Assembly (NCBI GenBank): GCA_963803185.1
Contig: CAWDMF010000013.1
Coordinates: 12,067 to 76,066, forward strand
DNA: 64,000 nucleotides
Reading direction: 5' to 3'
Origin: an uncultured Gammaproteobacteria bacterium
GTDB taxonomy: Bacteria; Pseudomonadota; Gammaproteobacteria; SZUA-229
The notes beneath the pieces are model-generated. The model ran no database searches and was not told where the DNA came from. It saw only the letters and a program-made list of their open reading frames with translations. Below are positions 16,828-36,390 of this stretch, piece by piece (position 1 is the stretch's first letter; every line of letters begins with the position of its first letter). A program made the translations under genes and the position numbers.

Positions 16828-17045
16828 TAGTCACTCTCAAAATTCTTTAAATAAATGACCTTTCGGTCACAGGAAACCGCGCATTTTACGTGATTATTTC
16901 GCTAGATGGAAGCCTGATTTACGGATAAAAACAAGAATGATTAACCGCCGAGACGCAGAGGCATAGAGAAAAACCTTAAATAGTCGGCGAATAAAGCTTC
17001 CGCATCCTGCTCACGCCCCTTACCTACGTACATCTAGGCAACGCG

Positions 17046-17211
17046 AAAGGCGCAAATGAACGCAAACAAATGCAAATTAAAAATTTCTTTTATTCTTTTG
17101 CAGGTTGGGCGCTGCCCACCGAAATGCCGGCAGTATTTATAGAGAAGGCGCACAATGCCCGCCTTACCAATCTACGCTTTTAAATATTGGCGTTCATTTG
17201 CGGACTACTAG
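17046..17211. repeat. degenerate family-1 palindromic element between ffh and rpsP
   Basis: gcgcaaatgaacgcaaacaaatgcaaat ... ggcgttcatttgcggactac. Confidence 0.55.
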
Positions 17212-17229
17212 TTTTTTACGATTTTCCTT

Positions 17230-18612: not shown

Positions 18613-18794
18613 GGCTTACCTGTTAATAAAAGAATTAGTTATAAAGGGGAATTATAACGAATTATGGAAGCGGTCGTTAGTCGTTTGTGATGCAGAAGGT
18701 ATCAGATCGATTTTCTGCGACTCCAGTAGCTGGACACCCCGGTTATTGTGGTATCAGAATCAGTGAAACCTTAACGCCGACAATGTCAGCTTAC

Positions 18795-19044
18795 AGATCA
18801 AAAATATCGCCGCTTTTCAGTTGATGAAGCTCCCAGCCCGGCAAAGCCGCTTTACATTGCGTCATAATTTGCTGTTCAAGTCCGGGCTTAAGATGTGAAA
18901 TACAGACTTTGGTTTTATGCATTAATATGCTCAAATCCTGCGCCAATAATGAAACGCTATTTTTGCCAGTGCTAAATCTTTATCCAGAAAAGCAGACTCA
19001 ACTTGCTTTATTCCGCCGCTACATCCTAATACACGCACTTTCAT
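18795..19044 (-). pseudogene. possible degraded gene remnant (two short frames: MKVRVLGCSGG... then MHKTKVCISHLKPGLEQQIMTQCKAALPGWELHQLKSGDIFDL)
   Basis: two short consecutive reading-frame pieces in different frames in a 600-bp gap that is empty in E. coli; N-terminus resembles MBL-fold hydrolase starts. Confidence 0.2.
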
Positions 19045-19226
19045 TTTGTAATGGCCTAACTCAACTTGGACAACTATATGATAATATGTCACACAAGGGA
19101 AAAGTATACGTCGACAGATTAGCTCGAATGTGAAAAAACTCACATTTTTTTCAGCATCAAATCCAGTTAGCAAACTTTTTATTGTTACTCATTATCAATA
19201 AGTATAAACCAGCAATTTAATTCAGT

Positions 19227-20048
19227 ATGAATAATTACATCCTAACTTTCAGCGCCATTATTCTTTATCTTACCTGTTCTGCTCTATTGTTAATTAACAT
19301 CAATAAAGCAGGGATACTAGCCACGATAAAAAAGGGAATACTGTCAAAAAAACATATCATCTTCATTGGTTTAGCCGGTTTGATTTTGCACGGCCTGACT
19401 TTGTATAACAGTACATTTAGCAGTATTGGTGTCAACCTGGGCTTTTACAATGCCATTTCACTGGTCAGTGCTTTTATTGTTCTATTCACCCTGATCGCAA
19501 CCTGGCGCCACCCGGTTGAAATACTGGCCATCATTCTGTTACCCATTGCCGTTGTCGCCATGCTAATTGAATTAGCTAGCACAAGCAGCCATTTACTTGC
19601 GGCAGGCACTTCAAAGGCGTTGATCTTTCATATATTAACCTCGATCATCGCCTACAGCCTGCTGGCACTGGCTGCTTTGCAGGCCATTTTACTCTCGGTA
19701 CAGAATAAATTTCTTCATGCACACCAGCCTGGTGGAATAATCAAACTGTTGCCACCATTAAAAAGCATGGAAGCTTTATTATTTGAAATTATTGTTGCCG
19801 GTTTTGTAACATTAACCATATCCCTTGGTAGCGGCCTGATTTTTCTGGAAGACATGTTCGCACAGCAACTGGTACACAAAACAATTTTATCCATACTGGC
19901 CTGGCTGGTATTTCTGATTTTGTTAGTCGGGCACTGGAAACTCGGCTGGCGTGGTCGCACGGCTATTCGTTGGACCTTAAGTGGTTTTGCCAGCCTGATG
20001 CTGGCCTATTTCGGCAGTAAATTTGTGCTGGAAATATTATTAAAATGA
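19227..20048 (+). CDS. ypjD: inner membrane protein, cytochrome c assembly (CcsA-like) family, YpjD homolog
   Basis: polytopic membrane protein, conserved divergent position next to ffh and upstream of CBS/CorC transporter. Confidence 0.7.
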   Translation: MNNYILTFSAIILYLTCSALLLININKAGILATIKKGILSKKHIIFIGLAGLILHGLTLYNSTFSSIGVNLGFYNAISLVSAFIVLFTLIATWRHPVEILAIILLPIAVVAMLIELASTSSHLLAAGTSKALIFHILTSIIAYSLLALAALQAILLSVQNKFLHAHQPGGIIKLLPPLKSMEALLFEIIVAGFVTLTISLGSGLIFLEDMFAQQLVHKTILSILAWLVFLILLVGHWKLGWRGRTAIRWTLSGFASLMLAYFGSKFVLEILLK

Positions 20049-20092
20049 AGTTTGCTTACTCTTCTATCGCCTAAATCAAGAGACTTTTCTGC

Positions 20093-21409
20093 TTGAACGA
20101 ATTATCGATAACCACGCTATTTATCCTCCTTGTCATACTGATTTTTCTTTCCGGTTTCTTTTCGGGATCGGAAACCGCATTGATGACGCTGAATCGTTAT
20201 CGGGCAAAAAGTCTTGCCGACAAAGGCCATAAAGGCGCGCAACTTGCCCTTAAATTACTCGACCGACCTGATCGATTACTGGGTTTAATACTGCTCGGCA
20301 ACAACATCGTAAATATTTTTGCAGCAACCATTGCGACTATCATCGCATTACGACTGTATGGTGAAATCGGACTGGCGCTGGTCCCTTTCGCTTTAGCTTT
20401 CGTCATTTTAGTTTTTGCTGAAGTCACGCCTAAAACGCTGGCCGCATTAAAACCTGAAAAACTTGCCTTTCCGTCAGCATTTATCTATACGCTAATTGCC
20501 GCACCACTTTACCCTTTTGTCTGGTTAGTTAATATTTTTTCCAATGGTCTTTTACGACTCATTGGTATTTACCCTGACAGGGAAAAAAGGCAGGAGCTCA
20601 GCGCTGACGAATTGCGCGCGGTGGTGATAGAAGCGGAACACTTTATGCCACAGGCCCACTCTGATATGTTGCTCGGCATTCTCGACCTGGAACAGGTCAG
20701 TGTGGAGGATATTATGATTCCACGCAATGAAATTACCGGCATCGATTTAAACGATGACTGGAATGACATTGTGCACCAGATCACCCATAGCCAACGCACA
20801 CGTGTTCCTGTTTTTCATGACAGCATCGATAACACGATTGGCGTTTTGCATTTACGCAAAGTGCTTAACCTGTTTTCGCGCGATGAACTCAACATGAAAA
20901 CGCTTAAAGGGCTAATTGCCCAGGCTTATTTTATTCCAGCCGGCACCCCACTCACCCACCAGTTATTAAGTTTTAAAGATAATCGTCGACGCTCCGGACT
21001 GGTCGTTGATGAGTACGGCAGTATTCAGGGGCTGGTAACACTGGAAGATATTCTGGAAGAAATTGTTGGCCAGTTCACCACCGATTCACCGACGCGTAGT
21101 CTTGGCATCCACAAACAGGATGACAACAGCTATCAAATTGACGGCAATACACATATTCGGGAGATTAATCGCGCATTAAACTGGAAACTGCCGGTTAATG
21201 GCCCAAAAACGCTAAATGGTTTAATTCTGGAACACATGGAAATTATTCCACAAAACGGCACCAGCTTGATGATCAATAACTACACTATTGAAATAACACG
21301 TACCACCAATAATGCAGTACAAACTGCAAGGGTGAAAAACACCAGAACCGTTGCCAGCAATAATAAGTTAACTGAGCCAACGAACCCGGGCATTTCACAA
21401 AACACATAA
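20093..21409 (+). CDS. HlyC/CorC family transporter (DUF21 + CBS pair + CorC_HlyC), YfjD homolog
   Basis: GSETAL DUF21 start, CBS domains, C-terminal transporter-associated domain. Confidence 0.8.
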   Translation: MNELSITTLFILLVILIFLSGFFSGSETALMTLNRYRAKSLADKGHKGAQLALKLLDRPDRLLGLILLGNNIVNIFAATIATIIALRLYGEIGLALVPFALAFVILVFAEVTPKTLAALKPEKLAFPSAFIYTLIAAPLYPFVWLVNIFSNGLLRLIGIYPDREKRQELSADELRAVVIEAEHFMPQAHSDMLLGILDLEQVSVEDIMIPRNEITGIDLNDDWNDIVHQITHSQRTRVPVFHDSIDNTIGVLHLRKVLNLFSRDELNMKTLKGLIAQAYFIPAGTPLTHQLLSFKDNRRRSGLVVDEYGSIQGLVTLEDILEEIVGQFTTDSPTRSLGIHKQDDNSYQIDGNTHIREINRALNWKLPVNGPKTLNGLILEHMEIIPQNGTSLMINNYTIEITRTTNNAVQTARVKNTRTVASNNKLTEPTNPGISQNT

Positions 21410-21411
21410 AG

Positions 21412-22782
21412 ATGGCTAAAGCAAAAATACAATATTCCTGCACCTCCTGCGGTGCCAGTCATTCTAAATGGGCCGGTCAATGCGGTGACTGTGGCGAATG
21501 GAACACCATGAGTGAAACCATTACCGCCATCACAACAAATAACCGCCAGGGGTTTGCTGGCAAAAAAGGCAGTGCAAAAATTCAGGCATTAGAAGATATA
21601 CAAATGCACGCTGAAATGCGCACAGCAACCAATATTAGTGAACTTGACCGGGTACTGGGCGGTGGCCTGGTGCATGGTTCCGTCACCTTAATTGGTGGCG
21701 ACCCCGGCATTGGCAAATCGACCCTGTTAACACAAACCCTGGCCAGCTTAAGTCAGTCTTTGCCCTGCTTGTATGTAACCGGTGAAGAATCGCTGGAACA
21801 GATATCCATGCGTGCGCACCGACTGGGGCTGGAAGACAGGGGGTTGAAATTACTCTCCGAAACCTGTGTCGAAAACATCATCACCCTGTCCAGCGAGTCA
21901 AATCCAAAAGTTATTGTCATTGATTCCATTCAAACCATTTACACTGAAGCGTTGCAGTCAGCTCCCGGTGCAGTTGCACAGGTTCGAGAAAGCGCAGCGC
22001 AACTGGTGCGTTTTGCCAAACAAACCGGCACCGCGTTATTCCTGGTCGGCCATGTAACCAAAGAAGGCACCCTCGCCGGTCCTCGTGTGCTTGAGCACAT
22101 GGTCGATACGGTACTTTATTTTGAAGGCGACCCCGGTGAACGCTACCGCATGATTCGCGCCATAAAAAATCGTTTTGGCGCAGTCAATGAGCTTGGTATT
22201 TTCGCGATGACCGATGAAGGTTTAAAAACGGTCAGCAATCCATCGGCGATTTTTCTTTCCCGTCACGAACAGCCCGTACCCGGCAGCATTATTACCGTGA
22301 CCCGCGAAGGCAGCCGGCCCATGCTTATCGAACTACAGGCACTGGTGGATGAAAGCCACAGCAACAATCCGCGACGTGTTTGCCTGGGATTAGACCCCAA
22401 CCGCCTTAACATGCTGCTCGCTGTGATGCACCGGCACGCTGGCATCGCCATGTTTGATCAGGACGTATTTATCAATATTGTTGGCGGTGTCCGCCTCACC
22501 GAAACCTCGGCCGACACTGCACTGATGCTTGCCGCACTATCCAGCTTTCGTGACAGACCTTTACCAAACAACGTTTTTACCTTTGGCGAAGTCGGCCTGG
22601 CCGGTGAAATCCGCCCCGTGCCCAACGGTCAGGAACGATTACGCGAAGCCGCCAAACACGGTTTTAAAACCGCAATTATCCCAAAAGCCAATAAACCAAG
22701 AAAAGGCGAAACCATTGAAGGGCTAAATATCATTGCCGTACAACGGGTTAGTGAACTGATAGAAACCGCTATTACACTATAA
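21412..22782 (+). CDS. radA: DNA repair protein RadA/Sms
   Basis: C4 zinc finger CTSCGASHSKWAGQCGDCGEWNTM, Walker A GGDPGIGKSTL, KNRFG, Lon-like C-term. Confidence 0.95.
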   Translation: MAKAKIQYSCTSCGASHSKWAGQCGDCGEWNTMSETITAITTNNRQGFAGKKGSAKIQALEDIQMHAEMRTATNISELDRVLGGGLVHGSVTLIGGDPGIGKSTLLTQTLASLSQSLPCLYVTGEESLEQISMRAHRLGLEDRGLKLLSETCVENIITLSSESNPKVIVIDSIQTIYTEALQSAPGAVAQVRESAAQLVRFAKQTGTALFLVGHVTKEGTLAGPRVLEHMVDTVLYFEGDPGERYRMIRAIKNRFGAVNELGIFAMTDEGLKTVSNPSAIFLSRHEQPVPGSIITVTREGSRPMLIELQALVDESHSNNPRRVCLGLDPNRLNMLLAVMHRHAGIAMFDQDVFINIVGGVRLTETSADTALMLAALSSFRDRPLPNNVFTFGEVGLAGEIRPVPNGQERLREAAKHGFKTAIIPKANKPRKGETIEGLNIIAVQRVSELIETAITL

Positions 22783-22796
22783 AAACCCTGAAACTA

Positions 22797-23037
22797 TTTT
22801 GCCGCGAAAAACGAAAAGAACGCGAAAGACGCAATAAAAGCTTATTTAGTCCACAGATGAACGCAAATGAACGCAAATCGAAAACTAGAGGATTTGTAAG
22901 GACTAAATCGTTTGATTTTTACAGGTGGTGCTAAAAAAGATTTAGATTTTACAAAAGGTTTATTTGCGTTCATTTGCGTTCATCTGTGGACAATATTTCT
23001 TTTGTTTTTCGCGCACTTTGCGTTTTTCGCGGCAAAA
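22797..23037. repeat. composite family-1 palindromic element: inner GAACGCAAAT-type arms (22848-22991) nested inside outer inverted repeat (gccgcgaaaaacg / cgtttttcgcggc)
   Basis: agtccacagatgaacgcaaatgaacgcaaat ... atttgcgttcatttgcgttcatctgtggac plus outer 13+ bp IR. Confidence 0.8.
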
Positions 23038-23085
23038 CAGTTTTTAATGTTCATTTCTACATGACTATATCAAGTCTCGAATAGT

Positions 23086-23331
23086 TTGCTAAAATGCGTT
23101 ATGACTAAAAAGATCCCCAATTTTGAAAAAGCATTAACCGAGCTGGAAACCCTGGTCGAAGAGATGGAACAGGGCAATCTCAGCCTCGAAGAATCACTAA
23201 AACGTTTTGAAAAAGGCATCGCTTTGAGCACAGAATGCCAGCAGGCACTGCAAAATGCTGAGTTAAAAATCAAGGAGCTGGTCGAAAAAAACGGTAAGTT
23301 ACTGGAACAGGACATCGAACTTGATAGTTGA
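23086..23331 (+). CDS. xseB: exodeoxyribonuclease VII small subunit
   Basis: 81 aa, FEKALTELETLVEEMEQGNLSLEESLKRFEKGIAL. Confidence 0.9.
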   Translation: MLKCVMTKKIPNFEKALTELETLVEEMEQGNLSLEESLKRFEKGIALSTECQQALQNAELKIKELVEKNGKLLEQDIELDS

Positions 23332-23455
23332 TGAGTTCGCATTTCTCATCAGCAGACAACATAGAACACAAGCGAATGATTTATAAACAACCATCTTGTT
23401 ATTTCAACCCAGGCACCGCTGCTGCAGCTGAAAACCTGGTGGGAAATGCAAACTG

Positions 23456-24352
23456 ATGCCTCATGTATTCCAATCCCGTCTACTCACTTACCAGAAACGA
23501 GTCAATACTGCTTTAGACAAGTACCTGCCAACAGACGATCCGCCAGAACATAATCTCGCTGAAGCGATGCGTTACTCTGTCATTGGCGGTGGTAAACGTA
23601 TTCGCCCGGCAATGGTTTACGCTGCCGGTGAAGCGCTGGGGGTATCACCGGATCTGCTGGATATTCCTGCCTGTGCGATTGAAATGATCCATGCCTACTC
23701 ATTAATTCATGATGATCTGCCAGCAATGGATGACGATGACCTGCGTCGCGGTCGGCCTACCTGTCACAAAGCGTTTGATGAAGCCACTGCAATATTAGCC
23801 GGTGATGCACTGCAGGCTTTGGCTTATGAAATTCTGGCAAAAGATGACCACAAAGAATTAACAGCGGAACACCGTGTCAGGATGTTAAGCCTGTTAACCG
23901 AAGCCAGTGGCGCACATGGCATGGCCGGTGGACAGGCCGTTGATCTGGCATCAGTCGGAAAACAGCTTACACTTGAACAGCTGGAACACATGCATCAGCT
24001 TAAAACTGGGGCATTGATTCGAGCCAGCATCCTGCTTGGCGGCATGTGCAAACAGCATGTCAGCAAGGATGAAATTGATATGCTTGGCGAATACGCCTTA
24101 AGCATCGGTCTTTCTTTCCAGATTCAGGATGATATTCTTGATGTTGTCAGTGACACTAAAACACTAGGAAAACCACAAGGTTCTGATGAAAAACAGAAGA
24201 AACCGACTTTTCCTGCAATCATTGGTCTTAAAGAATCACAACAACGTGCACTAGAGCAGCATCAACGTGCACTAAAAATACTTGAACCTATGGACAAAAA
24301 AGCGGATAGTTTACGCCAGTTATCTGCTTATATTGTTGAAAGACAGTTTTAA
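23456..24352 (+). CDS. ispA: (2E,6E)-farnesyl diphosphate synthase
   Basis: LIHDDLPAMDDDDLRRG and FQIQDDILD aspartate-rich motifs. Confidence 0.9.
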   Translation: MPHVFQSRLLTYQKRVNTALDKYLPTDDPPEHNLAEAMRYSVIGGGKRIRPAMVYAAGEALGVSPDLLDIPACAIEMIHAYSLIHDDLPAMDDDDLRRGRPTCHKAFDEATAILAGDALQALAYEILAKDDHKELTAEHRVRMLSLLTEASGAHGMAGGQAVDLASVGKQLTLEQLEHMHQLKTGALIRASILLGGMCKQHVSKDEIDMLGEYALSIGLSFQIQDDILDVVSDTKTLGKPQGSDEKQKKPTFPAIIGLKESQQRALEQHQRALKILEPMDKKADSLRQLSAYIVERQF

Positions 24353-24435
24353 CCAGCAACCCATACGAGCGTCATTAGTAACCATGCCCGATACTTATAC
24401 CATCTAGCCCGGCCCATTGCCCATGCCCTTTCCCC

Positions 24436-26358
24436 ATGCCATTTTCTAACTCCAACTGGTCGCTGCTAGAGTCGATAAACTCGCCGGCGGATGTTCGCAA
24501 GCTTAACAGCATGCGGCTAAAAGAACTGGCTCGCCAACTGCGTGAGTTTTTGCTGGAAAGCGTATCTTCCACTGGTGGTCACTTATCTGCCGGTCTTGGT
24601 ACCGTCGAGCTCACCATTGCACTGCACTATGTATTCAACACCCCTTACGATCGACTGGTGTGGGATGTTGGCCATCAAACCTACCCGCATAAGATCCTCA
24701 CCGGTCGCCGTGAAGAGATGGCCGGGTTACGCCAGAAAGGGGGTATCGCAGGCTTTCCAAAACGCAATGAAAGTGAATATGACTGTTTTGGTACCGGCCA
24801 TTCGAGCACATCGATTGCCGCTGCTTTAGGCATGAGTTTTGCTGCTAAACAGAACCATGAAAGCCGTCATTGTGTGGCAGTGATTGGTGATGGCGCGATG
24901 ACTGCAGGCATGGCATTTGAAGGACTGAATCATGCCGGTGACAGTGATGCTAATTTGCTGGTCATTTTAAATGACAATGACATGTCAATTTCAGCCAACG
25001 TTGGCGCACTATCCAACCACCTCACCCGGATATTATCCGGTGATCTGTTCTCAACGCTACGGGAAGGCAGCAAAAAAGTGCTGGAGAACATCCCCCCGGC
25101 ACTGGAACTGGCACGACGCACCGAAGAACATGTCAAAGGCATGGTCGCACCGGGCACACTTTTTGAAGAACTGGGCTTTACTTATTATGGACCTGTTGAC
25201 GGCCATGATCTTGACACGCTGATTCCGGTATTAAAAAATATCAATCAACAAACCGGGCCGAGACTGCTACATATTAGAACGCAAAAAGGCAAAGGTTATT
25301 TTCCAGCCGAAGATGCGCCGGTTAAATACCACGGCGTCGGCGCATTTGATCTAAGCACCGGTAAGTCACACGCCACCGGCAAAACCAGACCACAAACTTA
25401 TACTGAAATTTTTGGTCAATGGTTATGCGACATGGCTGAGCAGGACAAACGACTTGTTGGCATCACGCCGGCAATGAGCGAAGGCTCAGGCATGATTGAT
25501 TTTTCCAAACATTTCCCGAAACGCTATTTTGATGTTGGCATTGCAGAACAGCATGCTGTGACACTCGCTGCAGGTATGGCGTGCGAAGGTATAAAACCTG
25601 TTGTTGCCATCTATTCCACGTTCTTACAACGCGCTTATGATCAACTTATTCACGATGTCACCATACAGAATTTATCAGTGATGTTTGCGATTGATCGTGC
25701 CGGTATTGTTGGTGCAGATGGTCCCACCCACACTGGTGCTTATGACATCAGCTTTTTACGCTGCATACCCAACATGGTAATAATGACACCTGCCGATGAA
25801 GTCGAATGTCGCGGCCTGTTAACCACTGCATTTTTACATGACGGTCCCAGCGCAGTTCGTTATCCTCGTGGATCGGTGCATGATTTATCCATGGCTTTGA
25901 GCACAGGTGATGAGCCCGGCAACCGTAAATCCAGTAATAATAAATTGCAGGCGCTGCCCTTTGCTCAGGCAAAACAATACCGGCAGGGCAACAAAATCGC
26001 AATACTGGTGTTTGGCTCTTTGTTATCAACAGCCATTGTGGTTGCTGAAGAACTCGATGCCAGTGTTTACAGTATGCGCTTCGTCAAGCCACTGGATACA
26101 AACGCCATCAAAGCAGCTGCAGAGCAACATGACCTGTTGGTGACGATTGAAGATAATGCCATTGCAGGCGGTGCCGGCAGTGCCGTATCCGAGTACCTCA
26201 ACGAGCAAAATATCAGCACAGGACTGCTGCAGATAGGTTTTCCTGACGAATTCATCAATCATGGCAACCCCGATGAGTTATTGTCTGACTGGAAACTTGA
26301 TAAAACCGGCATATTACAGACCATACAGGCTCGAGTTAACGCAAATGTTTCACGCTAG
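24436..26358 (+). CDS. dxs: 1-deoxy-D-xylulose-5-phosphate synthase
   Basis: TPP motif [18 protein letters not shown], 640 aa, xseB-ispA-dxs synteny. Confidence 0.95.
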
Positions 26359-26391
26359 TACGCGCTCTCGAAAAAACCAGGCAATATCAGA

Positions 26392-26432
26392 AAATGAATA
26401 TATATCAATAACTTGATATATATTATTCATTT
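26392..26432. promoter_or_regulatory. 40-bp near-perfect AT-rich palindrome (aaatgaatatatatcaataacttgatatatattattcattt): candidate operator (Zur/Fur-type) for queD-folE2 or dxs terminator hairpin
   Basis: seen in sequence 34 bp after dxs stop, 200 bp before queD. Confidence 0.35.
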
Positions 26433-26633
26433 CCTTGATAACACTTAGCGCTTCGAAGCCTGCACAAAACACCACTCCAGCTGATGTTTTCAATGAAAAT
26501 TTTACCGGAGAAATCCTTTCTTAGTGAGGTCACCACACTAATGTAAAACATTTGAGTGTAGAAATTGCTTATATAAGGAAAACAGGATAAAATCCCTACT
26601 GTTTTACTCAGGTATTATTTAGGACTATAAATA

Positions 26634-27011
26634 ATGGCAGCTCGCTACCAGCTGAAAGTGGTGACCGAATTTGCTTCAGCTCATACTTTACGGGATTATC
26701 CCGGCGCATGCAGCCGTATGCATGGCCACAACTGGAAAGTTGAACTGGAAGCGGTGGCTACCCGGCTCGATAATGTCGGCATGGGCATTGATTTCAAAGT
26801 AATGAAAAACGCTGCCAATGAAATCGGTGATGAACTTGACCATCGTTATCTAAATGATCTTGAGCCGTTTAAAGAAGTTAACCCAACGGCAGAAAATATA
26901 GCAGCGTACATGTATAAAGCTATCTCTGCCCGTATAAACAGTGACAGCATTAAAGTGACTGCAGTTACGCTCTGGGAAACCGAACGCGCCTGCGTTCGTT
27001 ATAGTGAATAA
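26634..27011 (+). CDS. queD: 6-carboxy-5,6,7,8-tetrahydropterin synthase
   Basis: CSRMHGHNW and EL(E/D)H catalytic motifs of PTPS/QueD family, 125 aa. Confidence 0.8.
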   Translation: MAARYQLKVVTEFASAHTLRDYPGACSRMHGHNWKVELEAVATRLDNVGMGIDFKVMKNAANEIGDELDHRYLNDLEPFKEVNPTAENIAAYMYKAISARINSDSIKVTAVTLWETERACVRYSE

Positions 27012-27030
27012 AAAGTGAAGAGAATATACG

Positions 27031-27843
27031 ATGACAGACGTCCTTGATAAGAAAACCAGAACCACAAACACCTTACCCGATGTTCAGAACAGTGAGGACA
27101 CCCGTGCGATTGCGATTAATAAAGTAGGCATTAAGGATATTCGTCATCCGGTACAGGTAAAAGACCGTACCGGGCAGATTCAACATACCATCGCAAACTT
27201 CAACATGTACGTTGATTTGCCACATGAATTCAAAGGCACCCATATGTCGCGATTTGTTGAAATTCTCAACAATCACGACTGGGAAATCACCGTTGACTCG
27301 TTCAAAATCATGTTAACCGAGATGACCAGCCTGCTGGATGCTGAAGTAGGTCATATTGAAATGAGCTTCTATTTCTTTATTAACAAAACCGCCCCCGCTT
27401 CCGGGGTAAAAAGTTTGCTGGATTACGAAGTCAGTTTTATTGGCGAACGTAAAAATAACGAAAATAAAATCAACATAAAAGTTGTAGTGCCGGTCACCAG
27501 CTTATGTCCTTGCTCGAAAAAAATATCAGACCGCGGTGCTCACAATCAACGCTCTCATGTCACTGTTGATGTCGAAACAGAAGATTTTATCTGGGTAGAA
27601 GAAATTATTGACCTGGTTGAAGCACAGGCTTCCTGTGAATTATACGGCTTATTAAAACGCCCGGACGAAAAAATTGTTACCGAACGTGCCTACGATAATC
27701 CAAAATTTGTCGAAGACATGGTGCGCGACATTGCCCATCAATTAAACATTGATAAACGCATACTTTCCTATACCGTAGAATCAGAAAATTTTGAATCCAT
27801 TCATAACCATTCGGCTTATGCGCTGATTGAGAAAACACGATAG
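27031..27843 (+). CDS. folE2: GTP cyclohydrolase FolE2 (type IB, COG1469)
   Basis: 270 aa, [21 protein letters not shown] conserved FolE2/MptA motif. Confidence 0.8.
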
Positions 27844-28448
27844 ACGTAGCTAATACAAAAAAAACATATGTGTTAAGCCCGCTTTTTTATCAGCTGGCAA
27901 GCAATGCTACGATAAACCATTGCTAATGCCTGATGCATTGCTTTTGCATAACGGGCAAACAAATAGCGCTGCTCACAAGGAAAGCTGATACCCCATTGGT
28001 GTCCAGGCTCATCAGCTTATACTTCATCGACGAGTAAAGTGGCACTCTCAGGCATATGCCTGGCGCCAACAGAAAGCACAACAGAAAGGGAAAGCTCAGT
28101 GCCACGTGATGTTCGGCGTGGCAGGTCTCGCAGCACAACCGCAGCAAGCCCTGTTCCAGGTAGCTGCATTTCAGTAGTCGCCGATCCATACCCGCTGGAC
28201 GTAACCGGGCAAATCCTGGATATGCCATAAAAAGGTCGCGGGCAGTGTACCGCTGGCATTTTAATCTTATGTTGCTGCCGTACCAGTACTCTTGCAAAGT
28301 GATGCTAACCTGCTCTACTTCAGGCTTCCGGGCTTTCGCCTTTCGGGCCAACCATTGGTTGTTCAAAATCGCTGCCGACGATTTTGTCGCGGCAATGACA
28401 GCTAAGCGGTAAAGCAGTGCGGGAATTCCTTTTTTATTCGCTGCCGGT

Positions 28449-28878
28449 TTACCTGTGGCAGTCCCGGCAGCTGTCATGCGGGCCCGTGGGGAGGCTCTGC
28501 TCATGCCGATGTTTATGGCAGCCGGTGCAAAGGCCATGGAATGCTTGCTGCGCGTTGCGCACCGGTGGTTCAGCGTCGTTCACCGAATCGGGCTCGGCTT
28601 TCCTGATATTGGCGATGCTGAAATACCTGGCCTGGTGGCAGGCTATAACAGCTGCGAACAGGCTCGTCCTTAGTGCGCAACGTATGGTGGCAGGTGACGC
28701 AGCGTACACCTTCGAGGTCACTGTGGCGCTGGTGGGCGAAGGTTACCGGACCGAACTTGGGCGTCAGGGTGATCTCGGCCTTTTCGGGCGGGATAGCGTC
28801 AGTCGCGGTCACCAGCGCCGGCGCAAGCCCAAAAAATAGAACGAACCAGCGCAACCGATTTGGGGCAGCTGGCCGCAT
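28449..28878 (-). pseudogene. c3-type tetraheme cytochrome c with Sec signal peptide, interrupted by an apparent 1-nt insertion near 28640 inside the second heme motif (CYSCH)
   Basis: Frame A (28878->28570): MRPAAPNRLRWFVLFFGLAPALVTA...VTFAHQRHSDLEGVRCVTCHH...RSCYS; frame B (->28449): ...AFHGLCTGCHKHRH...DSCRDCHR; deleting one C restores CYSCH giving four CxxCH. Confidence 0.5.
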
Positions 28879-28894
28879 CTGCACGCAGCTCGGG

Positions 28895-30277
28895 CTAGAA
28901 GTAATAACGAACACGGAATTCCAGCTTGTAGTTGTTGGGCTTTTCTCCCCACTCGGTGAGCTGATCGCCAATAGGCGCAATCAGTCGTAGCCGTAGGTCC
29001 AGGTTATCGACGCCTTCGTAGTTCAGCTCAGGCGAAACCGAGTAGCTGTTATCCAGCAAGTTGTAGAGCACCTGGAAACCCGGCGTGAAATAAAGGATGT
29101 TGTAGGGCTCTCTCCACCAGGCACGCAGGTGAAAATACTGGCGCATGGGATTGGGTTTGGTGAATGGACCCTTGTCGACGTCTTCGTCGAGGGGCAGTCC
29201 GGCCAGCAGGTCCGGATCGCCGGCGTCCCAGGCGCGGTGAACGCATTCGTAAAACTGCCGCTGATCCTGTTCCCGGTTTCCGGCGCCGTTGTAATAATAT
29301 TCAGCGATCCAGGTGACATCGTTCTCGGTTCGGTAGCGCAGCCCGAGTAGAGAGCTGATTTTGTCATCTGGCGCCTCCCGTGTGAATTTGCAATCCGGGG
29401 TTATGTTGTGCAGCGACACATCGGTGAGGTAAGCGAGTTCGCCGTGGACCGCAAAATTGGTGGTGATGTTACTGGCAAAATCCATGCCGTAGCGTGCTGT
29501 CTTGCTGCCTTCACTGAGGAACAGGAAATCGATGTCAGTGTTCTGGTACAGCAGGTAAAGCTTGGCCGCGTAGTTGGTGAAGCCTTCCTTGCCGAAGTCA
29601 TTATTGATGCTGCCGCGGTTCGGCAGTACCAGTGGCGTTAAGGCAACGGTCTTCAGCCGGCCGCCGAAGGTCTTTATATAATCGAAGCCGGCGATCCAGA
29701 AGCCCTCGCGCGCAAGATCGGGATTACCGGCGTCCTTGGCCCGTTCAACAAATGCGACGGGGTTCCACGCGTAGCCGGTGCCCCAGCGATAGGCCTTCTT
29801 GCCCATGTCAAAGCTGAAGCCGGGATCAGGCTGCAGGTTCAGCAGGCCCTCGTACAATATGGTTTCGCCGCTTTCGTCGGTGTAATCCCAGGTCTTGCTG
29901 GTATGAGTGCGGAAAGACAGGGTGGTGATGCCCCGCCGGTAGCGACCATCGAGTTCGAGTACGGCCGGCAGGCGGGAGATGCTGTCGCGCGGCTGTTCGT
30001 CGAAGAACTGCAGCTGGTACAGCGCACCATCCTGGTTGCTCTGTGCATAATTCGGCTCGATCTCGGCGTAACCGCGCAGCACGAATGGTTTGGCCTCAAA
30101 TTTTTCGACGTCGAAGGTGAACTCGTCGGCACCCAGACCCGGCATCGACGTCACCACACAGGCGGTGGCAATCAAGACTCCTGCATGCCGACGGAGGCTA
30201 GCTCGTGTCAATAGCCCAGTCGCCCGCCCCCCTCTTTCCATACCGCTAAGAACCATGGGTGCTGGCAGTTGAGTCAC
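28895..30277 (-). CDS. outer-membrane beta-barrel protein (GTG start overlapping upstream stop; mature start probably internal after signal peptide)
   Basis: 460 aa, signal-like LIATACVVTSMPGLGA, alternating amphipathic strands rich in Y/W/G, C-terminal ...EFRVRYYF aromatic terminus typical of OM barrels. Confidence 0.55.
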   Translation of the reverse strand: MTQLPAPMVLSGMERGGRATGLLTRASLRRHAGVLIATACVVTSMPGLGADEFTFDVEKFEAKPFVLRGYAEIEPNYAQSNQDGALYQLQFFDEQPRDSISRLPAVLELDGRYRRGITTLSFRTHTSKTWDYTDESGETILYEGLLNLQPDPGFSFDMGKKAYRWGTGYAWNPVAFVERAKDAGNPDLAREGFWIAGFDYIKTFGGRLKTVALTPLVLPNRGSINNDFGKEGFTNYAAKLYLLYQNTDIDFLFLSEGSKTARYGMDFASNITTNFAVHGELAYLTDVSLHNITPDCKFTREAPDDKISSLLGLRYRTENDVTWIAEYYYNGAGNREQDQRQFYECVHRAWDAGDPDLLAGLPLDEDVDKGPFTKPNPMRQYFHLRAWWREPYNILYFTPGFQVLYNLLDNSYSVSPELNYEGVDNLDLRLRLIAPIGDQLTEWGEKPNNYKLEFRVRYYF

Positions 30278-31014
30278 CGCAGCTCCTTCACCTTCGGCAT
30301 GTAGTTGAGCGTGAACACCTCGTCCGGAAAATCGCGGGCCTGGACTTTTGCAAACAGCATGACCGCCTTGTAGCCCTTGTACAGAGGGCTGTCGGTCTCG
30401 AGCATGGAAGGCCGCCGGATACCGTCGCCGAAGTCCTTGATTTCGCTGTAACGGAGCCGCTTGATCAACAAACCGCTGGCAGCGAAAGCCTCAATCGACA
30501 GCGGTAGCAGGGAACTTTTATCCACCACCATAGCCAGGCGATCATAGGCCACGGAGCCCGTCCTGGCCTTCAGTGACAGCTTGTAGTTGTCAGCCACTTC
30601 CTCGATGGTCTCGACGTTGTATTCAGTGCTGAACTCCAGTCGCATCAAGTCGGAATTATTGAAGATGCCGCCAACGACCGATTGCAGGCTGGTGATGCGG
30701 ATCGGTTTGCCCACATCGGGGATGAACAGCCACATGTTGTCGCCACGGCGAAGGGTGGTGCGACCGGCGTCGGTGGACGGCTCCAGGAACAACGCAACCA
30801 TGCTGTCACGACCTTTTTTGGCGGTATATAAGACGAATTCCTTGCGCTTACCGTCCGGTTCAACATTGATGAGTTTGCGATACATCTCGTACGACTCGGG
30901 GGCCAGGTTGCGATCCACCTGTTGCAGAATCGACTGCCCGTCAACAGCGTGGACACTGGCGGCGGCGCACAGCAGGATCACTACAGCCAGCAAGATTGGT
31001 CGCCTCATGTTCAC
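30274..31014 (-). CDS. periplasmic LolA-like (outer membrane lipoprotein-sorting protein family) carrier protein
   Basis: 246 aa with signal peptide MNMRRPILLAVVILLCAAASVHA; size/composition and operon context with MacB-type ABC typical of LolA-like proteins. Confidence 0.4.
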   Translation of the reverse strand: MNMRRPILLAVVILLCAAASVHAVDGQSILQQVDRNLAPESYEMYRKLINVEPDGKRKEFVLYTAKKGRDSMVALFLEPSTDAGRTTLRRGDNMWLFIPDVGKPIRITSLQSVVGGIFNNSDLMRLEFSTEYNVETIEEVADNYKLSLKARTGSVAYDRLAMVVDKSSLLPLSIEAFAASGLLIKRLRYSEIKDFGDGIRRPSMLETDSPLYKGYKAVMLFAKVQARDFPDEVFTLNYMPKVKELR

Positions 31015-31409
31015 TCGCCCCTCAATTCCTTGGCGACATCTTCGACAGTGCCACTGCGGCGGACAAAGCGTACTTTGCGTGCAACCATGACGTCCTCCAT
31101 CTTGGGCCCGACCATACCGCCGACGAGCACTGAGACACCCTTGTCGGCGAGTGTGGTGGCTGCCGCCGGTCCGATGCCGAACTCGAGATCAAGGTGGGGA
31201 TTGGCAAGGACCTCGATGGCTTTACCGTTGATATCGTAGAGGTGGAAATAGGGCGAAATGCCTGACAGCTTGCTGATCGACGACGTCAGTTCGGCACCCT
31301 CTGCCGCTATAGCGAAGTTATCGGCTTTGTAGGCGTCGGCTTCTTCGGCCGCAAAGGTCGACGTCAGCGTAAGGGTGACTAATGCGAAAAAGGAAAGTAC
31401 TCTGATCAT
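31011..31409 (-). CDS. secreted NifX/NafY-like dinitrogenase FeMo-cofactor-binding domain protein
   Basis: Signal peptide MIRVLSFFALVTLTLTSTFA; APYFHLYD...GKAIEVLAN and FGIGPAAATTLADKGVSVLVGGMVGPKM match PF02579 consensus (apyfliyd / ggaGi.aa.lL...gvdvv.tg.iGp). Confidence 0.55.
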   Translation of the reverse strand: MIRVLSFFALVTLTLTSTFAAEEADAYKADNFAIAAEGAELTSSISKLSGISPYFHLYDINGKAIEVLANPHLDLEFGIGPAAATTLADKGVSVLVGGMVGPKMEDVMVARKVRFVRRSGTVEDVAKELRGE

Positions 31410-31468
31410 AATGTTTCTCCTGGTGAAGACACAAACTCGCCGCTATCCAGCATGTTCGTATCCGGGGT

Positions 31469-32905
31469 TCATACGTGCCTTAATGCCTTGATCGGGTTCA
31501 TCCGCGAGGCCTTCCAGGCGGGCTGTAAACTTGCCAGGACCGCGACGAGTATGGTCAGCAGCCCGGTGATAATGACATCGGAGGCGGATATTGAGGGTAC
31601 CAGGATGAGATTATCCTGGCGCCCGAAGGCGATAGTGAAGGTCATCCGGTTGGCGATCCCAATGGCAGCAAGGCTGATCGCGGTCCCGATCACCGTCCCG
31701 ACGAAACCAAGAAGGAAACCCTCGCTGACGAACAGCGCCAGGATCGTAGCAGGTTTTGTGCCAATGGCGGAGATGGTGCCAATCTCCCGGATGCGTTCAT
31801 ATACTGCCATGATTAACACGTTCATGACGCTGATCAATACCACAGAAATCAGGATAATCCGGATGAACAGGGTCATCAGGTCTATCATGTCAGCAATCTT
31901 GGAAAACGGCACGAATTTCTGCCAGGGGTGTATCTGAAAAATGGTCAGCCCACGGCGGTTTTTCAATTCAGCGACTTTGGCCTCGAGACTGGCGAGCGTA
32001 ATTTCCTGCATGCCGCGATCACGCAATCGGATCGCGATCTCACTGACCTCGGAAGGTTGTCCCCAGCCTCTTTCGCTGAACAGCTTGCGCGTTGCGGGCA
32101 AAAACTCGTCGGTATCAGTGAGCGGAACCGGTGGTTGCTCGGCCAGTGCCGCGTCTCGCTTCAATTTGAGGCTGTCAACGGGGGCTTCGGCCGGCGCCTC
32201 GGCATAACCAAGACCCGCAAGTAATTCCTGTTCGACCGCCTGTTCCTCTATGCGCAGGAGTTCGCGCGCGTCGTCGATATGGAGGTAGCCGTCTCGACCG
32301 CCCGGACCGGAGATACTCTCAAGGATGCCCTGTACCACAAAGGTCTTGCCATTGACCGAACCGTCCTTGTTGGTTGCCACCAGCACAACGGTATCACCCA
32401 CCTTGACTTTCATGCCGTTGGCGATGAGCTCCGGGACCTGGATTTTGCCTTTTTCCACCAGGGGTGAGGACGTGCCGCCGGCGAACACCCGCTGGGTGAC
32501 CTGTGGCACGGTGGCGACCTCGCGATCGGGGTAGACGCCGTTGAGTCGGATGCTGGTGGTGCTGGCGAAATTGCTGAACATGGCCATCAACTTGATCCGC
32601 GGCGACCACGCCTCGATCTCGTCGGTTTCGTCAAGGCTCTGGTAAAGCTTGACCAGCATTCGTGGCCGCATGTTGCGATCGACGGGCAGGCTTTCCATGG
32701 CACCGACATAACCGCGACGGTGAACCTGGAGGTGTCCCACCATGGAGTCGGTGAATTGCGATACCATCATGGTCTTGAACGAGCCGGCAACCGCGATAAA
32801 TAGTAACACGGCTACCAGGCCCACGGTGATCAGAAGCGAGGTCAGAATAGTGCGTCGCTTGTAGCGCAGCAGGTTGCGACCCGCGATCTTGAGTACGTCA
32901 TTCAT
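31469..32905 (-). CDS. ABC transporter permease, FtsX/MacB/LolCE-type with about 300-aa periplasmic domain (ORF extends to 33028 but probable start MNDVLKIAGRNLLRYKRR at 32905)
   Basis: N-terminal TM, large periplasmic domain, C-terminal 3 TM helices ending ...SLQPAWKASRMNPIKALRHV typical of FtsX family. Confidence 0.75.
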   Translation of the reverse strand: MNDVLKIAGRNLLRYKRRTILTSLLITVGLVAVLLFIAVAGSFKTMMVSQFTDSMVGHLQVHRRGYVGAMESLPVDRNMRPRMLVKLYQSLDETDEIEAWSPRIKLMAMFSNFASTTSIRLNGVYPDREVATVPQVTQRVFAGGTSSPLVEKGKIQVPELIANGMKVKVGDTVVLVATNKDGSVNGKTFVVQGILESISGPGGRDGYLHIDDARELLRIEEQAVEQELLAGLGYAEAPAEAPVDSLKLKRDAALAEQPPVPLTDTDEFLPATRKLFSERGWGQPSEVSEIAIRLRDRGMQEITLASLEAKVAELKNRRGLTIFQIHPWQKFVPFSKIADMIDLMTLFIRIILISVVLISVMNVLIMAVYERIREIGTISAIGTKPATILALFVSEGFLLGFVGTVIGTAISLAAIGIANRMTFTIAFGRQDNLILVPSISASDVIITGLLTILVAVLASLQPAWKASRMNPIKALRHV

Positions 32906-33602
32906 GGCTTGCACCCTCATCTTTTGTCTGCCGTCGCACATGGCCGTCCTCGAGTACGAAGGTCTCCTCAGCCTCGGCCATGATCTTGGGATCGTGCGTC
33001 GAGAACACGAAGGTGGTACCAAATTCATCCCGGAGTTGTCGCATCAGCCCGATGATCCGGAGGGCCGTTGAGCGATCGAGATTCGCGGTTGGCTCGTCGG
33101 CAAGCACCAGCCTGGGATTCGTCACCAGGGCGCGGGCCACGGCGACCCGCTGCTTCTGGCCACCGGACAGCTGATCGGGACGTTTATCGGCCTGGTCAGA
33201 GATACCCGCTGCGGCCAGCAGGCTAAGGATCCGCTCGCGGCGACGCTGCAGGGGCCATTTCTGCACCATGATCAGCGGGTATTCCACATTCTCGTATACC
33301 GTAAGCACAGGAATAAGATTGAAGTCCTGAAAGACGAAGCCGATGTTCTCTCCACGGAATACCGCTGCTGCGTGATGGTCGAGTGTCGATACGTCCGTGC
33401 CGCTGACGGTGAGGCGGCCATCGGTCGGTGGATCGAGGCAGCCGATCATGTTGAGCAGCGTACTCTTGCCGCTTCCGGAGGGCCCGACGAAGCAAACGAA
33501 TGATGCCGGCTCGATGCTAAAGTCGACGCCGCGAATCGCGTGGACCGTCACATCGCCGGTGCGGTAATCCTTAACCAGATTTTCTGCGGTCACCAGGCTC
33601 AT
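32898..33602 (-). CDS. ABC transporter ATP-binding protein (MacB/LolD-type)
   Basis: Walker A GPSGSGKSTLLN, signature LSGGQKQRVAVARAL, Walker B LVLADEPT, H-loop; 234 aa. Confidence 0.85.
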   Translation of the reverse strand: MSLVTAENLVKDYRTGDVTVHAIRGVDFSIEPASFVCFVGPSGSGKSTLLNMIGCLDPPTDGRLTVSGTDVSTLDHHAAAVFRGENIGFVFQDFNLIPVLTVYENVEYPLIMVQKWPLQRRRERILSLLAAAGISDQADKRPDQLSGGQKQRVAVARALVTNPRLVLADEPTANLDRSTALRIIGLMRQLRDEFGTTFVFSTHDPKIMAEAEETFVLEDGHVRRQTKDEGASHE

Positions 33603-33706
33603 TGCCTGTCTCTCCTGTCTATCTGCGCGTCAGCCTTTTTCCTGCCCGTGGATCCCGCCTGCGGAGGTGCAAAGTCCAGTATCTCATCCAGGGCCCTCAT
33701 TACCGG

Positions 33707-34357
33707 CTATTTCTTCAGCTTTAACGGGTGTAACTGCTTGAGCAAGCCGGGTTCAGGTTCTTCGTCGTGGAGGTAACCTGGCGGCGGATAGATGGTCTCA
33801 CAAGTCCCCTCTTTGACCTCGGCCAATTCCCGCTGCGTCATGCAGACGTCGTAATTGCCAGGGCCACCATCCAGCTTGCCGTATCCGGGTCCATCCCACA
33901 ATACGTCAAAATCGCCCTCTCCGCCATAGAGCTGGTCGTCACCCGGCGCGCCAAACAGCCAGTCGTCACCGGGGCCGCCGTAAATGATATCAACACCGCG
34001 CGCGCCAAACAGGGAGTCAATGCCGGGGCCACCGCACAGGATGTCGTCCCCTGCGTCGCCGTGGACGACGTCGTTGCCAGGACCGGCGACGATGACATCA
34101 TTTTCGTCGCTACCCAGTATCAGGTCATGACCGGTAGTGCCCACACAAGTGGCTTTCTCGCCATGACAGAGCGGCACTTCGCTCAGGCCTGGCGGAAGAT
34201 AGGGGCACTTGATTACAGTATGAGCGGTCGTGTAGTCGGGGAAGGCTTCCTTGGTCACTTCGGGGCCCGCCGCCGTGGACATCGCGGCTAACGCGACGCT
34301 GATCGCAACAGCGATTTCGAAAAGACAAGAAACTCGGGATGATGATAAAACGCACAT
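33707..34357 (-). CDS. secreted RTX-like calcium-binding beta-roll protein (hemolysin-type GGxGxD repeats) with N-terminal Sec signal and Cys-containing flanks
   Basis: tandem nonapeptides GGPGIDSLF GARGVDIIY GGPGDDWLF GAPGDDQLY GGEGDFDVL; N-terminal hydrophobic signal, no C-terminal T1SS-type signal evident. Confidence 0.6.
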   Translation of the reverse strand: MCVLSSSRVSCLFEIAVAISVALAAMSTAAGPEVTKEAFPDYTTAHTVIKCPYLPPGLSEVPLCHGEKATCVGTTGHDLILGSDENDVIVAGPGNDVVHGDAGDDILCGGPGIDSLFGARGVDIIYGGPGDDWLFGAPGDDQLYGGEGDFDVLWDGPGYGKLDGGPGNYDVCMTQRELAEVKEGTCETIYPPPGYLHDEEPEPGLLKQLHPLKLKK

Positions 34358-34708
34358 TTTTTTATTCTCCTAATGTCATTTTTATTATTGTCCTTACAGT
34401 TGTTAAGTATACTCCCACTTTTCTAACGACATCAACCCTTCGGCTTCATTCTTTTGCAAAATTCAACCAATGCTCATCAGCTTTATTGCTGGTCAACAAT
34501 TTGTCGTACGAATACCCGATGTGCAGCTGACAGAATTCACCGATGCATTAACGCACGGCGAGATATTGCTGATGGCCGATGTATCACTTTTCGTGTTGCT
34601 GAAATTGAAAATCTTGTTCATAAGCAGCATCCAGAAGCGGCAGTTAGTGGTATAAGCTGGACAATGGATGGTTTCGGTATTTAACCTGGAGATTTTAAAA
34701 TAGCCGGG

Positions 34709-36058
34709 TTAAATAACCAAAAAATAGCCTGAACCAACAGCAGCGCATGCAGCAATTACGGAAACAATACCCGCTTTATATCTAAACAGGGCAATAAACG
34801 CTGCCGCACCGATGAAAGCTGAAAACCACTCAAAGTGGCCATCAAAACCTTGCGGCCAAAGCACATGGTAAGCAAAAAAAGTGGCAAGATTAAGAATGAC
34901 ACCAACCACCGCTGCGGTTATGCCGGTTAACGGGGCCGTAAACTTAACATCATCTCTGGTCGCTTCAACAGCGGGACCACCTAACAAAATAAAAAGAAAA
35001 GAAGGTAAAAAAGTAAACAAGGTGGCAATGCCTGCGCCTGCCGCGCCAGCTAAAAGTAACGAGTCAGGTCCAAAAATTTCTTTTGTCCAGGCGCCAACAA
35101 AACCCACAAAAGCCACAACCATAATCAGCGGTCCGGGTGTGGTTTCACCCAGGGCCAGGCCATCAATCATCTGGCTTCCGGTTAGCCATTGATATTGCTC
35201 AACACCACCTTGATAAACATAAGGTAAAACCGCATAAGCACCACCAAAAGTCACCAGTGCGGCTTTAGTAAAAAACCAGCTCATTTGTGTAAGCGTGCCC
35301 TGCCAGCCGTAAGCATTGATCAACATGATCATTACCGCGCCAGCAATGAACAGACCTATCAAAGAAAAAACCAGAAACCGGCCCCACTTAAACTGTGCAT
35401 GTTCAGGTGCGGGTGTGTCGTCATCAATAATGGCAGGCCCGTATGTCTCCTTCGAGGCACCATGGCCTGCACCCGCTTTAAAATGCTCAGGCGAAACATA
35501 GGACCCTATATAGCCGATTAAACCTGCCGCTAATACAATGTAAGGAAAAGATATCTCAAAAGCAAAAATAGCAATGAAGGCCAGTACAGCCATGAGACGC
35601 AGCACATTATTTTTTAACGCCCTGGAACCAATGCGGTAAGCAGCAAAGACCACTATCGCGGTAACAGCTGGTTTAATGCCGTATAAAACACCTTCAACCA
35701 CCGGCACATCACCATAAACCAGGTAAATCCATGTCAGACCAATAAGAATAAAAAGTGACGGCAGCACAAATAAAACACCCGCAGCAATACCACCCCAGAC
35801 ACCATGCATTAACCAGCCGATATAAGTTGCCAGCTGCTGCGCTTCTGGTCCAGGCAGTACCATGGTGTAATTAAGAGCATGCAAAAAACGATGTTCAGAA
35901 ATCCACCGGCGCTTTTCTACCAGCTCCTGATGCATCATGCTTATCTGGCCCGCTGGTCCACCAAAACTGATAAATCCTAACTTAAGCCAGTACATAACGG
36001 CTTCGAAAAATGAAACGGGCTCAGGTTGCCCTGTTAATTCCTTTGTATTTGAAGCCAT
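34709..36058 (-). CDS. chrA: chromate ion transporter ChrA (CHR family, two-domain); ORF extends to GTG at 36112
   Basis: FISFGGPAGQISMM...LPGP and second-half FGGAYAVLPYV motifs. Confidence 0.8.
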   Translation of the reverse strand: MASNTKELTGQPEPVSFFEAVMYWLKLGFISFGGPAGQISMMHQELVEKRRWISEHRFLHALNYTMVLPGPEAQQLATYIGWLMHGVWGGIAAGVLFVLPSLFILIGLTWIYLVYGDVPVVEGVLYGIKPAVTAIVVFAAYRIGSRALKNNVLRLMAVLAFIAIFAFEISFPYIVLAAGLIGYIGSYVSPEHFKAGAGHGASKETYGPAIIDDDTPAPEHAQFKWGRFLVFSLIGLFIAGAVMIMLINAYGWQGTLTQMSWFFTKAALVTFGGAYAVLPYVYQGGVEQYQWLTGSQMIDGLALGETTPGPLIMVVAFVGFVGAWTKEIFGPDSLLLAGAAGAGIATLFTFLPSFLFILLGGPAVEATRDDVKFTAPLTGITAAVVGVILNLATFFAYHVLWPQGFDGHFEWFSAFIGAAAFIALFRYKAGIVSVIAACAAVGSGYFLVI

Positions 36059-36224
36059 TAGATTCACTCTGAAAAACAAGCCGTTATTGTACACAACAGG
36101 CAGTTGAGACACTATTTAAGGAAGAAATATATGATTAATCCGGGCATTGAAGTAAATAGTGCAGCCTAACTGTATAACGACACTTTATGCTCAGCGGCGG
36201 AGTGAAAATTCTTTATCATTCCTT

Positions 36225-36255
36225 CCGCAAATGAACGCAAATACACGCAAATAAT
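36225..36255. repeat. solo half-arm of family-1 element (ccgcaaatgaacgcaaatacacgcaaat)
   Basis: matches arm motif without a partner arm nearby. Confidence 0.5.
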
Positions 36256-36390
36256 AATCTTTTTAACAACCACAAAAGTTATTTTTCTATACTTAAGCCG
36301 AATTTAGCATGGCTATGCAATATCCGGCGTAAGCAGACAATAAATAGCACCATCATGATGCACTTCTGTTCCACAAATAATATCTAGAGA

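Follow-up and report, generated by a model that had tools for sequence, protein, structure and literature searches.

The locus described here raises the question of whether a gene for a multiheme cytochrome, which is split between two reading frames inside one of its heme-binding motifs, is broken in the organism, was altered only in the assembly, or is decoded through a change of frame. A preliminary description of the 64-kb window (the whole stretch of DNA that was analysed) had proposed a gene for a tetraheme c3-type cytochrome c with a signal peptide, broken by a single-nucleotide frameshift inside a heme motif. Pfam, a profile search against the PDB and 39 full-length homologues bear this out and point to a predicted Sec-exported class III cytochrome c with one extra nucleotide in its second heme motif. 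The parts of the gene, in the direction of its transcription, are the following:

28449..28878, minus strand: the whole disrupted cytochrome c3-family gene, delimited by translation of both frames, Pfam PF02085 and alignments with intact orthologues
28804..28878, minus strand: putative signal peptide MRPAAPNRLRWFVLFFGLAPALVTA, then the conserved mature N-terminus TDAIPP, placed by inspection; the ALVTA/TDAIPP junction is kept in homologues
28687..28701, minus strand: heme motif 1, CVTCH (frame A), then the predicted distal-ligand His65, from translation, motif count and alignment
28635..28650, minus strand: heme motif 2, split, TGT TAT A[G]CC TGC CAC, read as C-Y-S-L-P in frame A and as I-A-C-H in frame B
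28643, minus strand: the extra nucleotide, G on the gene strand and C on the plus strand, from indel tables and orthologue alignments
28570..28572, minus strand: premature stop of frame A, ending a 102-aa product (P0032) that holds heme motif 1 only
28515..28529, minus strand: heme motif 3, CTGCH (frame B), with the invariant F113-H114 (predicted distal ligand) before the motif, from translation and alignment
28455..28469, minus strand: heme motif 4, CRDCH (frame B), at the C-terminus, from translation and alignment
28449-28451, minus strand: native stop TAA of the gene, from the frame B translation

The gene comprises 430 nt, that is, 429 nt plus one extra base. Frame A runs from the ATG at 28878 to the stop at 28570-28572 and reads MRPAAPNRLRWFVLFFGLAPALVTA-TDAIPP...VTFAHQRHSDLEGVRCVTCHH...RSCYS, then LPPGQVFQHRQ. 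Frame B, shifted by +1, reads ...ACHQARYFSIANIRK...AFHGLCTGCHKHRH...DSCRDCHR up to the stop at 28449-28451; around the junction it is also given as ...ACHQARYFSIANIRKAEPDS...AFHGLCTGCHKHRH...DSCRDCHR. Retranslation of both frames agrees with the frames, signal peptide and motif layout that had been described. When one base is deleted in TGT TAT AGC C TGC CAC (28650-28635), the two frames become one and encode a protein of 142 aa with four CxxCH motifs. The four motifs after repair are thus as first stated, and the length of 143 aa given earlier corresponds to 143 codons including the stop. Likewise, the count of four CxxCH in 430 bp applies to the repaired gene, whereas the sequence as deposited holds three intact motifs and one split motif. 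Ten CxxCH in total turn up when the 64-kb window is translated in all six frames, three of them in the cytochrome gene, and a Poisson estimate puts four or more by chance in this stretch at about 1e-9, which is negligible, as had been claimed. The 102-aa product of frame A is identical to a public protein, P0032 (NCBI/ENA, 104,196-bp contig), so the frameshift was already present in the sequence as deposited and did not arise from misreading.

The repaired 142-aa protein matched PF02085 with 41 bits (E=2.6e-10; gathering score of the model 22.9) over model positions 15-101 of 101. The retranslation did not reduce the CxxCH motifs to a misreading. The similarity search suggested in the preliminary description, run with the repaired cytochrome, retrieved 41 relatives with E values down to 8e-86, all annotated as PF02085 and matching colinearly across both frames. 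The full-length relatives measure 129-182 aa, and those with a name are called 'cytochrome c3 family protein [Gammaproteobacteria bacterium]'. We built an alignment of 40 sequences (A2), consisting of 39 full-length homologues and the repaired window protein, and its profile matched the cytochromes c3 2CY3 (E=1.5e-11) and 1W7O (E=9.6e-11) in the PDB, as well as the c3-like domains of HmcA. Weaker Pfam matches of the repaired protein were to the c7 and c3_2 models, and its NCBIfam matches (HmcA, c7, TmcA, nine-heme cytochrome) were all sub-threshold. The idea that the locus encodes no cytochrome and that its CxxCH motifs arose by chance in two unrelated frames is ruled out by the PF02085 match, the colinear homologues, the motif density and the profile matches. 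The disrupted gene belongs to a family that has already been annotated.

The residues expected to carry the hemes are conserved throughout. The second heme motif, which is the broken one here, is unbroken in 39 of 39 full-length homologues, with C77, C80 and H81 invariant. Motif 1 and the His that follows it (C60, C63, H64 and H65) are invariant in the 40 sequences, and so are all heme-binding Cys and His except the nearly invariant H121, the His of the third motif, which P0022 lacks. H49, H52, H65 and H114 are likewise invariant in the 40 sequences and align with the corresponding His of 2CY3; they are predicted to serve as the four sixth (distal) ligands of bis-His hemes. At the N-terminus, a basic region and a hydrophobic core were seen by inspection, together with a cleavage-like site between VTA and TD that is conserved among homologues; cleavage there would leave a mature protein of about 117 aa with CVTCH, CY(T/S)CH (split), CTGCH and CRDCH. 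Class III cytochromes c have four CxxCH or CxxxxCH motifs in a mature protein of about 100-130 residues. These features support the prediction that the product is a class III (c3-type) cytochrome c with four bis-His-ligated hemes, located in the periplasm. An AlphaFold2 model of the repaired protein, made with the 40-sequence alignment, had a mean pLDDT of 52.7 and a pTM of 0.26 and was too poor for a fold search; poor models are usual for folds that depend on heme.

The extra base was then placed against the relatives of the gene. The gene was recovered in nine independent sequences with 88-99% nucleotide identity (L001, L005-L009 and L012, and the relics L010 and L011), drawn from ENA, JGI, NCBI and Logan assemblies of different samples. 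The seven intact relatives (L001, L005, L006, L007, L008, L009 and L012), which come from independent assemblies and are 92-99% identical in nucleotides, are all one base shorter. Six of the seven read TGT TAT A-CC TGC CAC (C-Y-T-C-H), and L012 reads TAC G-CC TGT CAC (C-Y-A-C-H). The form TATA[G]CCTGC occurs in the window alone, the extra base being the plus-strand C at 28643. In three of these relatives (L008, L009 and L012) the gene sits where it does in the window, beside folE2. Since the intact relatives read ACC or GCC, the ancestral motif was more likely CYTCH than CYSCH, and the most parsimonious event suggested by the alignments is that an ACC (Thr) codon gained a G, giving A[G]CC. The repair proposed in the preliminary description, removal of one C to give CYSCH, does restore the frame; it is the nature of the event that the relatives read differently, favouring an extra G and an ancestral CYTCH. 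The alternative of a duplicated C in an AGC (Ser) codon would restore the frame equally, and it keeps its place because the relic in L010 and L011, which are more distant, and many homologues have Ser at this position.

When the G is removed, the window protein differs from P0068 (encoded in L007) only at V13I and F16I, both in the signal peptide. The mature protein is then 100% identical to P0068, and there are no window-specific substitutions downstream of the shift. There is no homopolymer at the site between the A and the CC. Heme motifs make up 20 of the 142 codons, so that a frameshift inside one of them is unremarkable. Clustering of about 15 billion proteins leaves the frame A product as the sole member of its cluster. 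The frameshifted form across the site is TATAGCCTGCC, which carries the extra base, and a scan of metagenomes for the pattern TGTTATA-N{1,2}-CTGCCACCAGGCCAGGTAT, designed to admit the frameshift allele, returned only two contigs, and both of these have the intact allele, ACC. Nor did a second assembly of the same strain come up when the frame A product, the frame B ORF, FolE2 and a 634-aa protein were looked up by exact sequence; the nearest other samples, L015 and L018, are 98.6-99% identical and end before the cytochrome gene.

The cytochrome is the last of seven co-oriented genes, the first of which encodes an RTX-repeat protein, and the whole set lies on a stretch of distinct composition:

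28895..34357, minus strand: the other six genes of the conserved operon, which precede the cytochrome gene, all intact by ORF list and Pfam
28895-30277, minus strand: protein of 460 aa, without a Pfam match and presumed to lie in the outer membrane
30274-31014, minus strand: LolA_like/TP_0789-like protein (Pfam)
31011-31409, minus strand: NifX-like protein (Nitro_FeMo-Co in Pfam) with an N-terminal hydrophobic stretch that resembles a signal peptide
31469-32905, minus strand: MacB-type FtsX permease (Pfam)
32898-33602, minus strand: ABC ATPase (Pfam)
33707-34357, minus strand: RTX-repeat protein (Pfam)
27950..34350, no strand: GC-rich island of 55-63% GC between folE2 and chrA, from composition profiles

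The gene order of the operon is common to the window, L002 (543-6435), L004 (509-6417) and L009 (12257-17728), L002 and L004 being MAGs of uncultured Gammaproteobacteria. More distant homologues of the cytochrome gene stand alone in L017 (61% identity) or, for P0039 (50% identity), beside a LolA-like gene. The 6.4-kb island, set in a genome of about 43% GC, contains the whole seven-gene operon and occupies the same insertion site in L008, L009 and L012, a sign that the island is real and was not created by a chimeric join. The GC content of the operon in L002 and L004 is close to that of its flanks. The island looks horizontally acquired, but no integrase, tRNA or flanking repeats were identified at it, and Rfam and tRNA scans of the 64-kb window gave no matches. 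A search of the literature on this operon or on gammaproteobacterial c3 cytochromes found only an architectural analogue in Borrelia, to which we return below.

Two intergenic stretches of the window deserve mention for themselves. Between the convergent folE2 and cytochrome genes lies a non-coding stretch of 526 bp (27905-28430; within wider bounds, 27843-28449, 600 bp are non-coding), which is conserved in L007, L008, L009 and L012 with variants of 1 nt, 8 nt and 12 nt and is cleanly absent from L014. None of its ORFs gave a Pfam signal, and it showed no Rfam match and no convincing terminator; it contains a lone CETCH at 28132, outside any coherent ORF. Compared with L009, the radA-xseB intergenic region (window 22800-23030) is strongly rearranged: it has a dozen small indels, and L009 6185-6394 matches window 23042-22821 in inverted orientation. 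This spacer appears to be invertible or palindromic and AT-rich.

The accuracy of the assembly around the gene was assessed mainly against L009, a 341,844-bp ENA contig that aligns with window 16598-36379 over 19.8 kb at 97.4% identity, with 21 indels. Eighteen of these are intergenic. The three in coding sequence measure 6 nt (in the gene for the 460-aa protein), 3 nt (in the RTX gene) and 1 nt (in the cytochrome gene), the last being the sole coding indel over the 19.8 kb that is not a multiple of three. The other genes in the aligned stretch are full length, and where lengths differ this is due to the choice of start codon or to the two in-frame indels. Ten further window ORFs that looked suspect, being short, overlapping or next to long gaps, all proved to hold full-length Pfam domains (10/10). 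Judged by these comparisons, the window is an accurate assembly with a single frame-breaking indel. The permease and ATPase, whose ORFs overlap, were considered as a second broken gene and rejected, as they are separate, intact ABC and FtsX genes. The impression that L009 lacks an intact cytochrome, no gene being called on that strand, was also dismissed: the gene is intact there, and the gene caller had taken an antisense ORF instead. This antisense ORF spans 28417-28839 on the plus strand of the window (140 aa) and 11866-12201 on the plus strand of L009 (111 aa, no Pfam match). Its call in L009 in place of the GC-rich cytochrome gene suggests that this cytochrome family is probably under-annotated in databases.

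Loss of genes is also seen elsewhere in this lineage. In L010 and L011, whose core genes are 92-94% identical to those of the window, the operon is absent beside folE2, and what is found (L010 14712-14950, minus strand; L011 about 8120-8350) is a 5'-truncated relic of the cytochrome gene, in which the 3' half, from ...GEPIRSCYSCHQ to the stop, is joined to unrelated sequence. We read this relic as an independent inactivation of the same cytochrome gene. In the window itself, at 18794-19044 on the minus strand, there is a relic of an MBL-fold gene (Lactamase_B / Apyc1-like / PDEase_II) with an internal frame change and about 500 nt deleted; it keeps residues 182-255 of a 255-aa protein that is intact in L010. 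L009 has no intact MBL-fold gene either, only ORFs of 37 and 43 aa being called there, and so the deletion appears to be common to the window and L009 and not an artefact of assembly. Together, the cytochrome relic in L010 and L011 and the MBL-fold relic indicate that real gene decay occurs in the lineage.

How, then, did the extra base arise? Programmed recoding would make it a genuine base across which a +1 ribosomal frameshift, or transcriptional slippage, inside the heme motif restores a full-length tetraheme cytochrome. Both halves of the gene are intact and the shift sits in an otherwise perfect gene, as this would require, but the shift occurs in none of the seven near relatives and none of the 39 homologues. 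A shift of +1 or -2 would be needed, -1 leading into a frame with stops. By inspection, UAU-AGC-CUG offers no re-pairing in the P site, and the A-site CUG is a sense codon, not a stop, and not evidently slow. AGC-CUG is not known as a shifty context. The site also has neither a homopolymer nor an A/T run on which transcription could slip. Programmed +1 frameshifting of the prfB type likewise needs a +1 shift to restore the frame, but the window differs from prfB in having no conserved shift, no CUU-UGA-type site or slow codon, and no upstream Shine-Dalgarno-like element that might act as a stimulator. We consider recoding to be extremely improbable, and the slippage site that the preliminary description had listed among its explanations finds no place here, which leaves the other two on its list, a recent pseudogene and a sequencing error. 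A far more serious contender is an artefact of sequencing, consensus or assembly, in which the organism's gene is intact (TAT ACC TGC CAC) and the base was added during assembly or polishing, for instance by the collapse of a mixed MAG population. The allele is indeed confined to one assembly, all relatives being intact; the gene is otherwise perfect and has no secondary lesions, as the identity of its mature protein to P0068 illustrates; and AGCC resembles an overlay of the ACC allele of L007-L009 and the AGC allele of L010/L011. However, that AGC allele also differs nearby (TGT vs TGC, AGT ATT vs AGC ATC), and since the window has none of these neighbouring variants, mixture with this known allele is not supported. 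The clean comparison with L009 and the ten intact ORFs speak against an error-prone assembly, and a homopolymer error, as had been suggested, fits poorly with a site that has no homopolymer run. We hold an artefact to be a strong possibility, somewhat short of an even chance.

The same clean assembly argues for a real mutation, and so does the kind of site, long-read or flow-chemistry errors being concentrated in homopolymers. The documented losses in the clade, the cytochrome relic of L010/L011 and the MBL-fold relic, make a further loss plausible, and the gene seems accessory, being borne on an island, placed at the end of its operon and found as a stand-alone homologue in L017. Against this, the allele is a singleton, the other six genes of the operon are intact, and there is no decay downstream of the shift, which gives the locus the same look as an assembly error. 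On balance we favour, at slightly better than even chances, a real and very recent loss-of-function mutation, either a nascent pseudogene or a variant within the population. We infer that the base is present in the DNA of the organism, having not come from the assembly, and that no function is left. More modest than recoding is a further reading, in which a real frameshift would mark the onset of decay of a horizontally transferred envelope operon that sister lineages have already reduced to a relic.

If the mutation is real and very recent, as we favour, its consequences would follow from a single G gained between codons 78 and 79, by which TAT ACC TGC became TAT AGC CTG. Translation would leave the frame after Cys77-Tyr78 and meet a stop 23 codons later, giving the product of 102 aa with one heme site. 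This product could still be exported, but with heme site 1 only it should not be able to form the four-heme c3 core. The part encoded in frame B has no signal peptide of its own and would therefore have no access to the periplasmic heme-attachment machinery, a step that follows from the established biogenesis of c-type cytochromes. With the cytochrome gene at the end of the operon, no polar effect on the other six genes would be expected.

For annotation, the locus should be given as one disrupted cytochrome c3-family gene, labelled as a pseudogene or a probable sequence error. The present record offers a 102-aa hypothetical protein here and, in L009, a spurious antisense ORF. Should the lesion be real, the strain has lost the electron-transfer part of a horizontally acquired envelope operon while the transport genes were kept, which would make it a small natural experiment on whether the operon needs its cytochrome to function. 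The frameshift in itself is unsurprising. More interesting are the island and its operon, in which ABC, LolA-like, NifX-like and presumed outer-membrane proteins are combined with a c3 cytochrome.

As regards known systems, the architecture of the operon is reminiscent of the Borrelia BBJ23-29 cluster, an export cluster of MacB, a LolA-like protein and an outer-membrane barrel (PMC13078400), to which the window operon adds a redox protein. The closest counterparts of the cytochrome are those of uncultured Gammaproteobacteria MAGs (MGB5279503.1, our P0009, and P0068 and P0060 from Logan), which belong to the same orthologous group with 75-98% amino acid identity. In most of the contigs that reach far enough, these orthologues directly follow the gene for the presumed outer-membrane protein of about 460 aa, as in the window; they are intact, whereas the window copy has one extra base. 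The triheme cytochrome c7 (PpcA family, Geobacter; PF14522, NF043011) has the N-terminal His and CxxCH pattern in common with the window protein, but the matches are weak, with 28 bits for PF14522 and 28 bits for NF043011 (cut-off 120). We reject membership of the c7 family, the window protein having four hemes and not three and a score far under the equivalog cut-off.

Another close known system is the type I tetraheme cytochrome c3 of sulfate reducers (PF02085; 2CY3, 1W7O). It is a small periplasmic protein with four c-type hemes, as the repaired window protein is predicted to be. The two have the same succession of F-x-H-x-x-H, CxxCHH, F-H followed by CxxCH, and a C-terminal CxxCH, together with four additional invariant His, and the profile match to 2CY3 spans hemes 1-4. 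They differ in the motif for heme 2, which is CxxxxCH in 2CY3 and CxxCH in the window, where all four motifs are CxxCH, and in the longer insert between hemes 2 and 3 of the window protein (SIANIRKAEPDS...). The host of the window gene is an uncultured gammaproteobacterium and not a sulfate reducer of the Desulfovibrio type. No hydrogenase or Hmc/Tmc/Qrc partner genes lie near the window cytochrome. Finally, unlike type I c3, the window copy is frameshifted.
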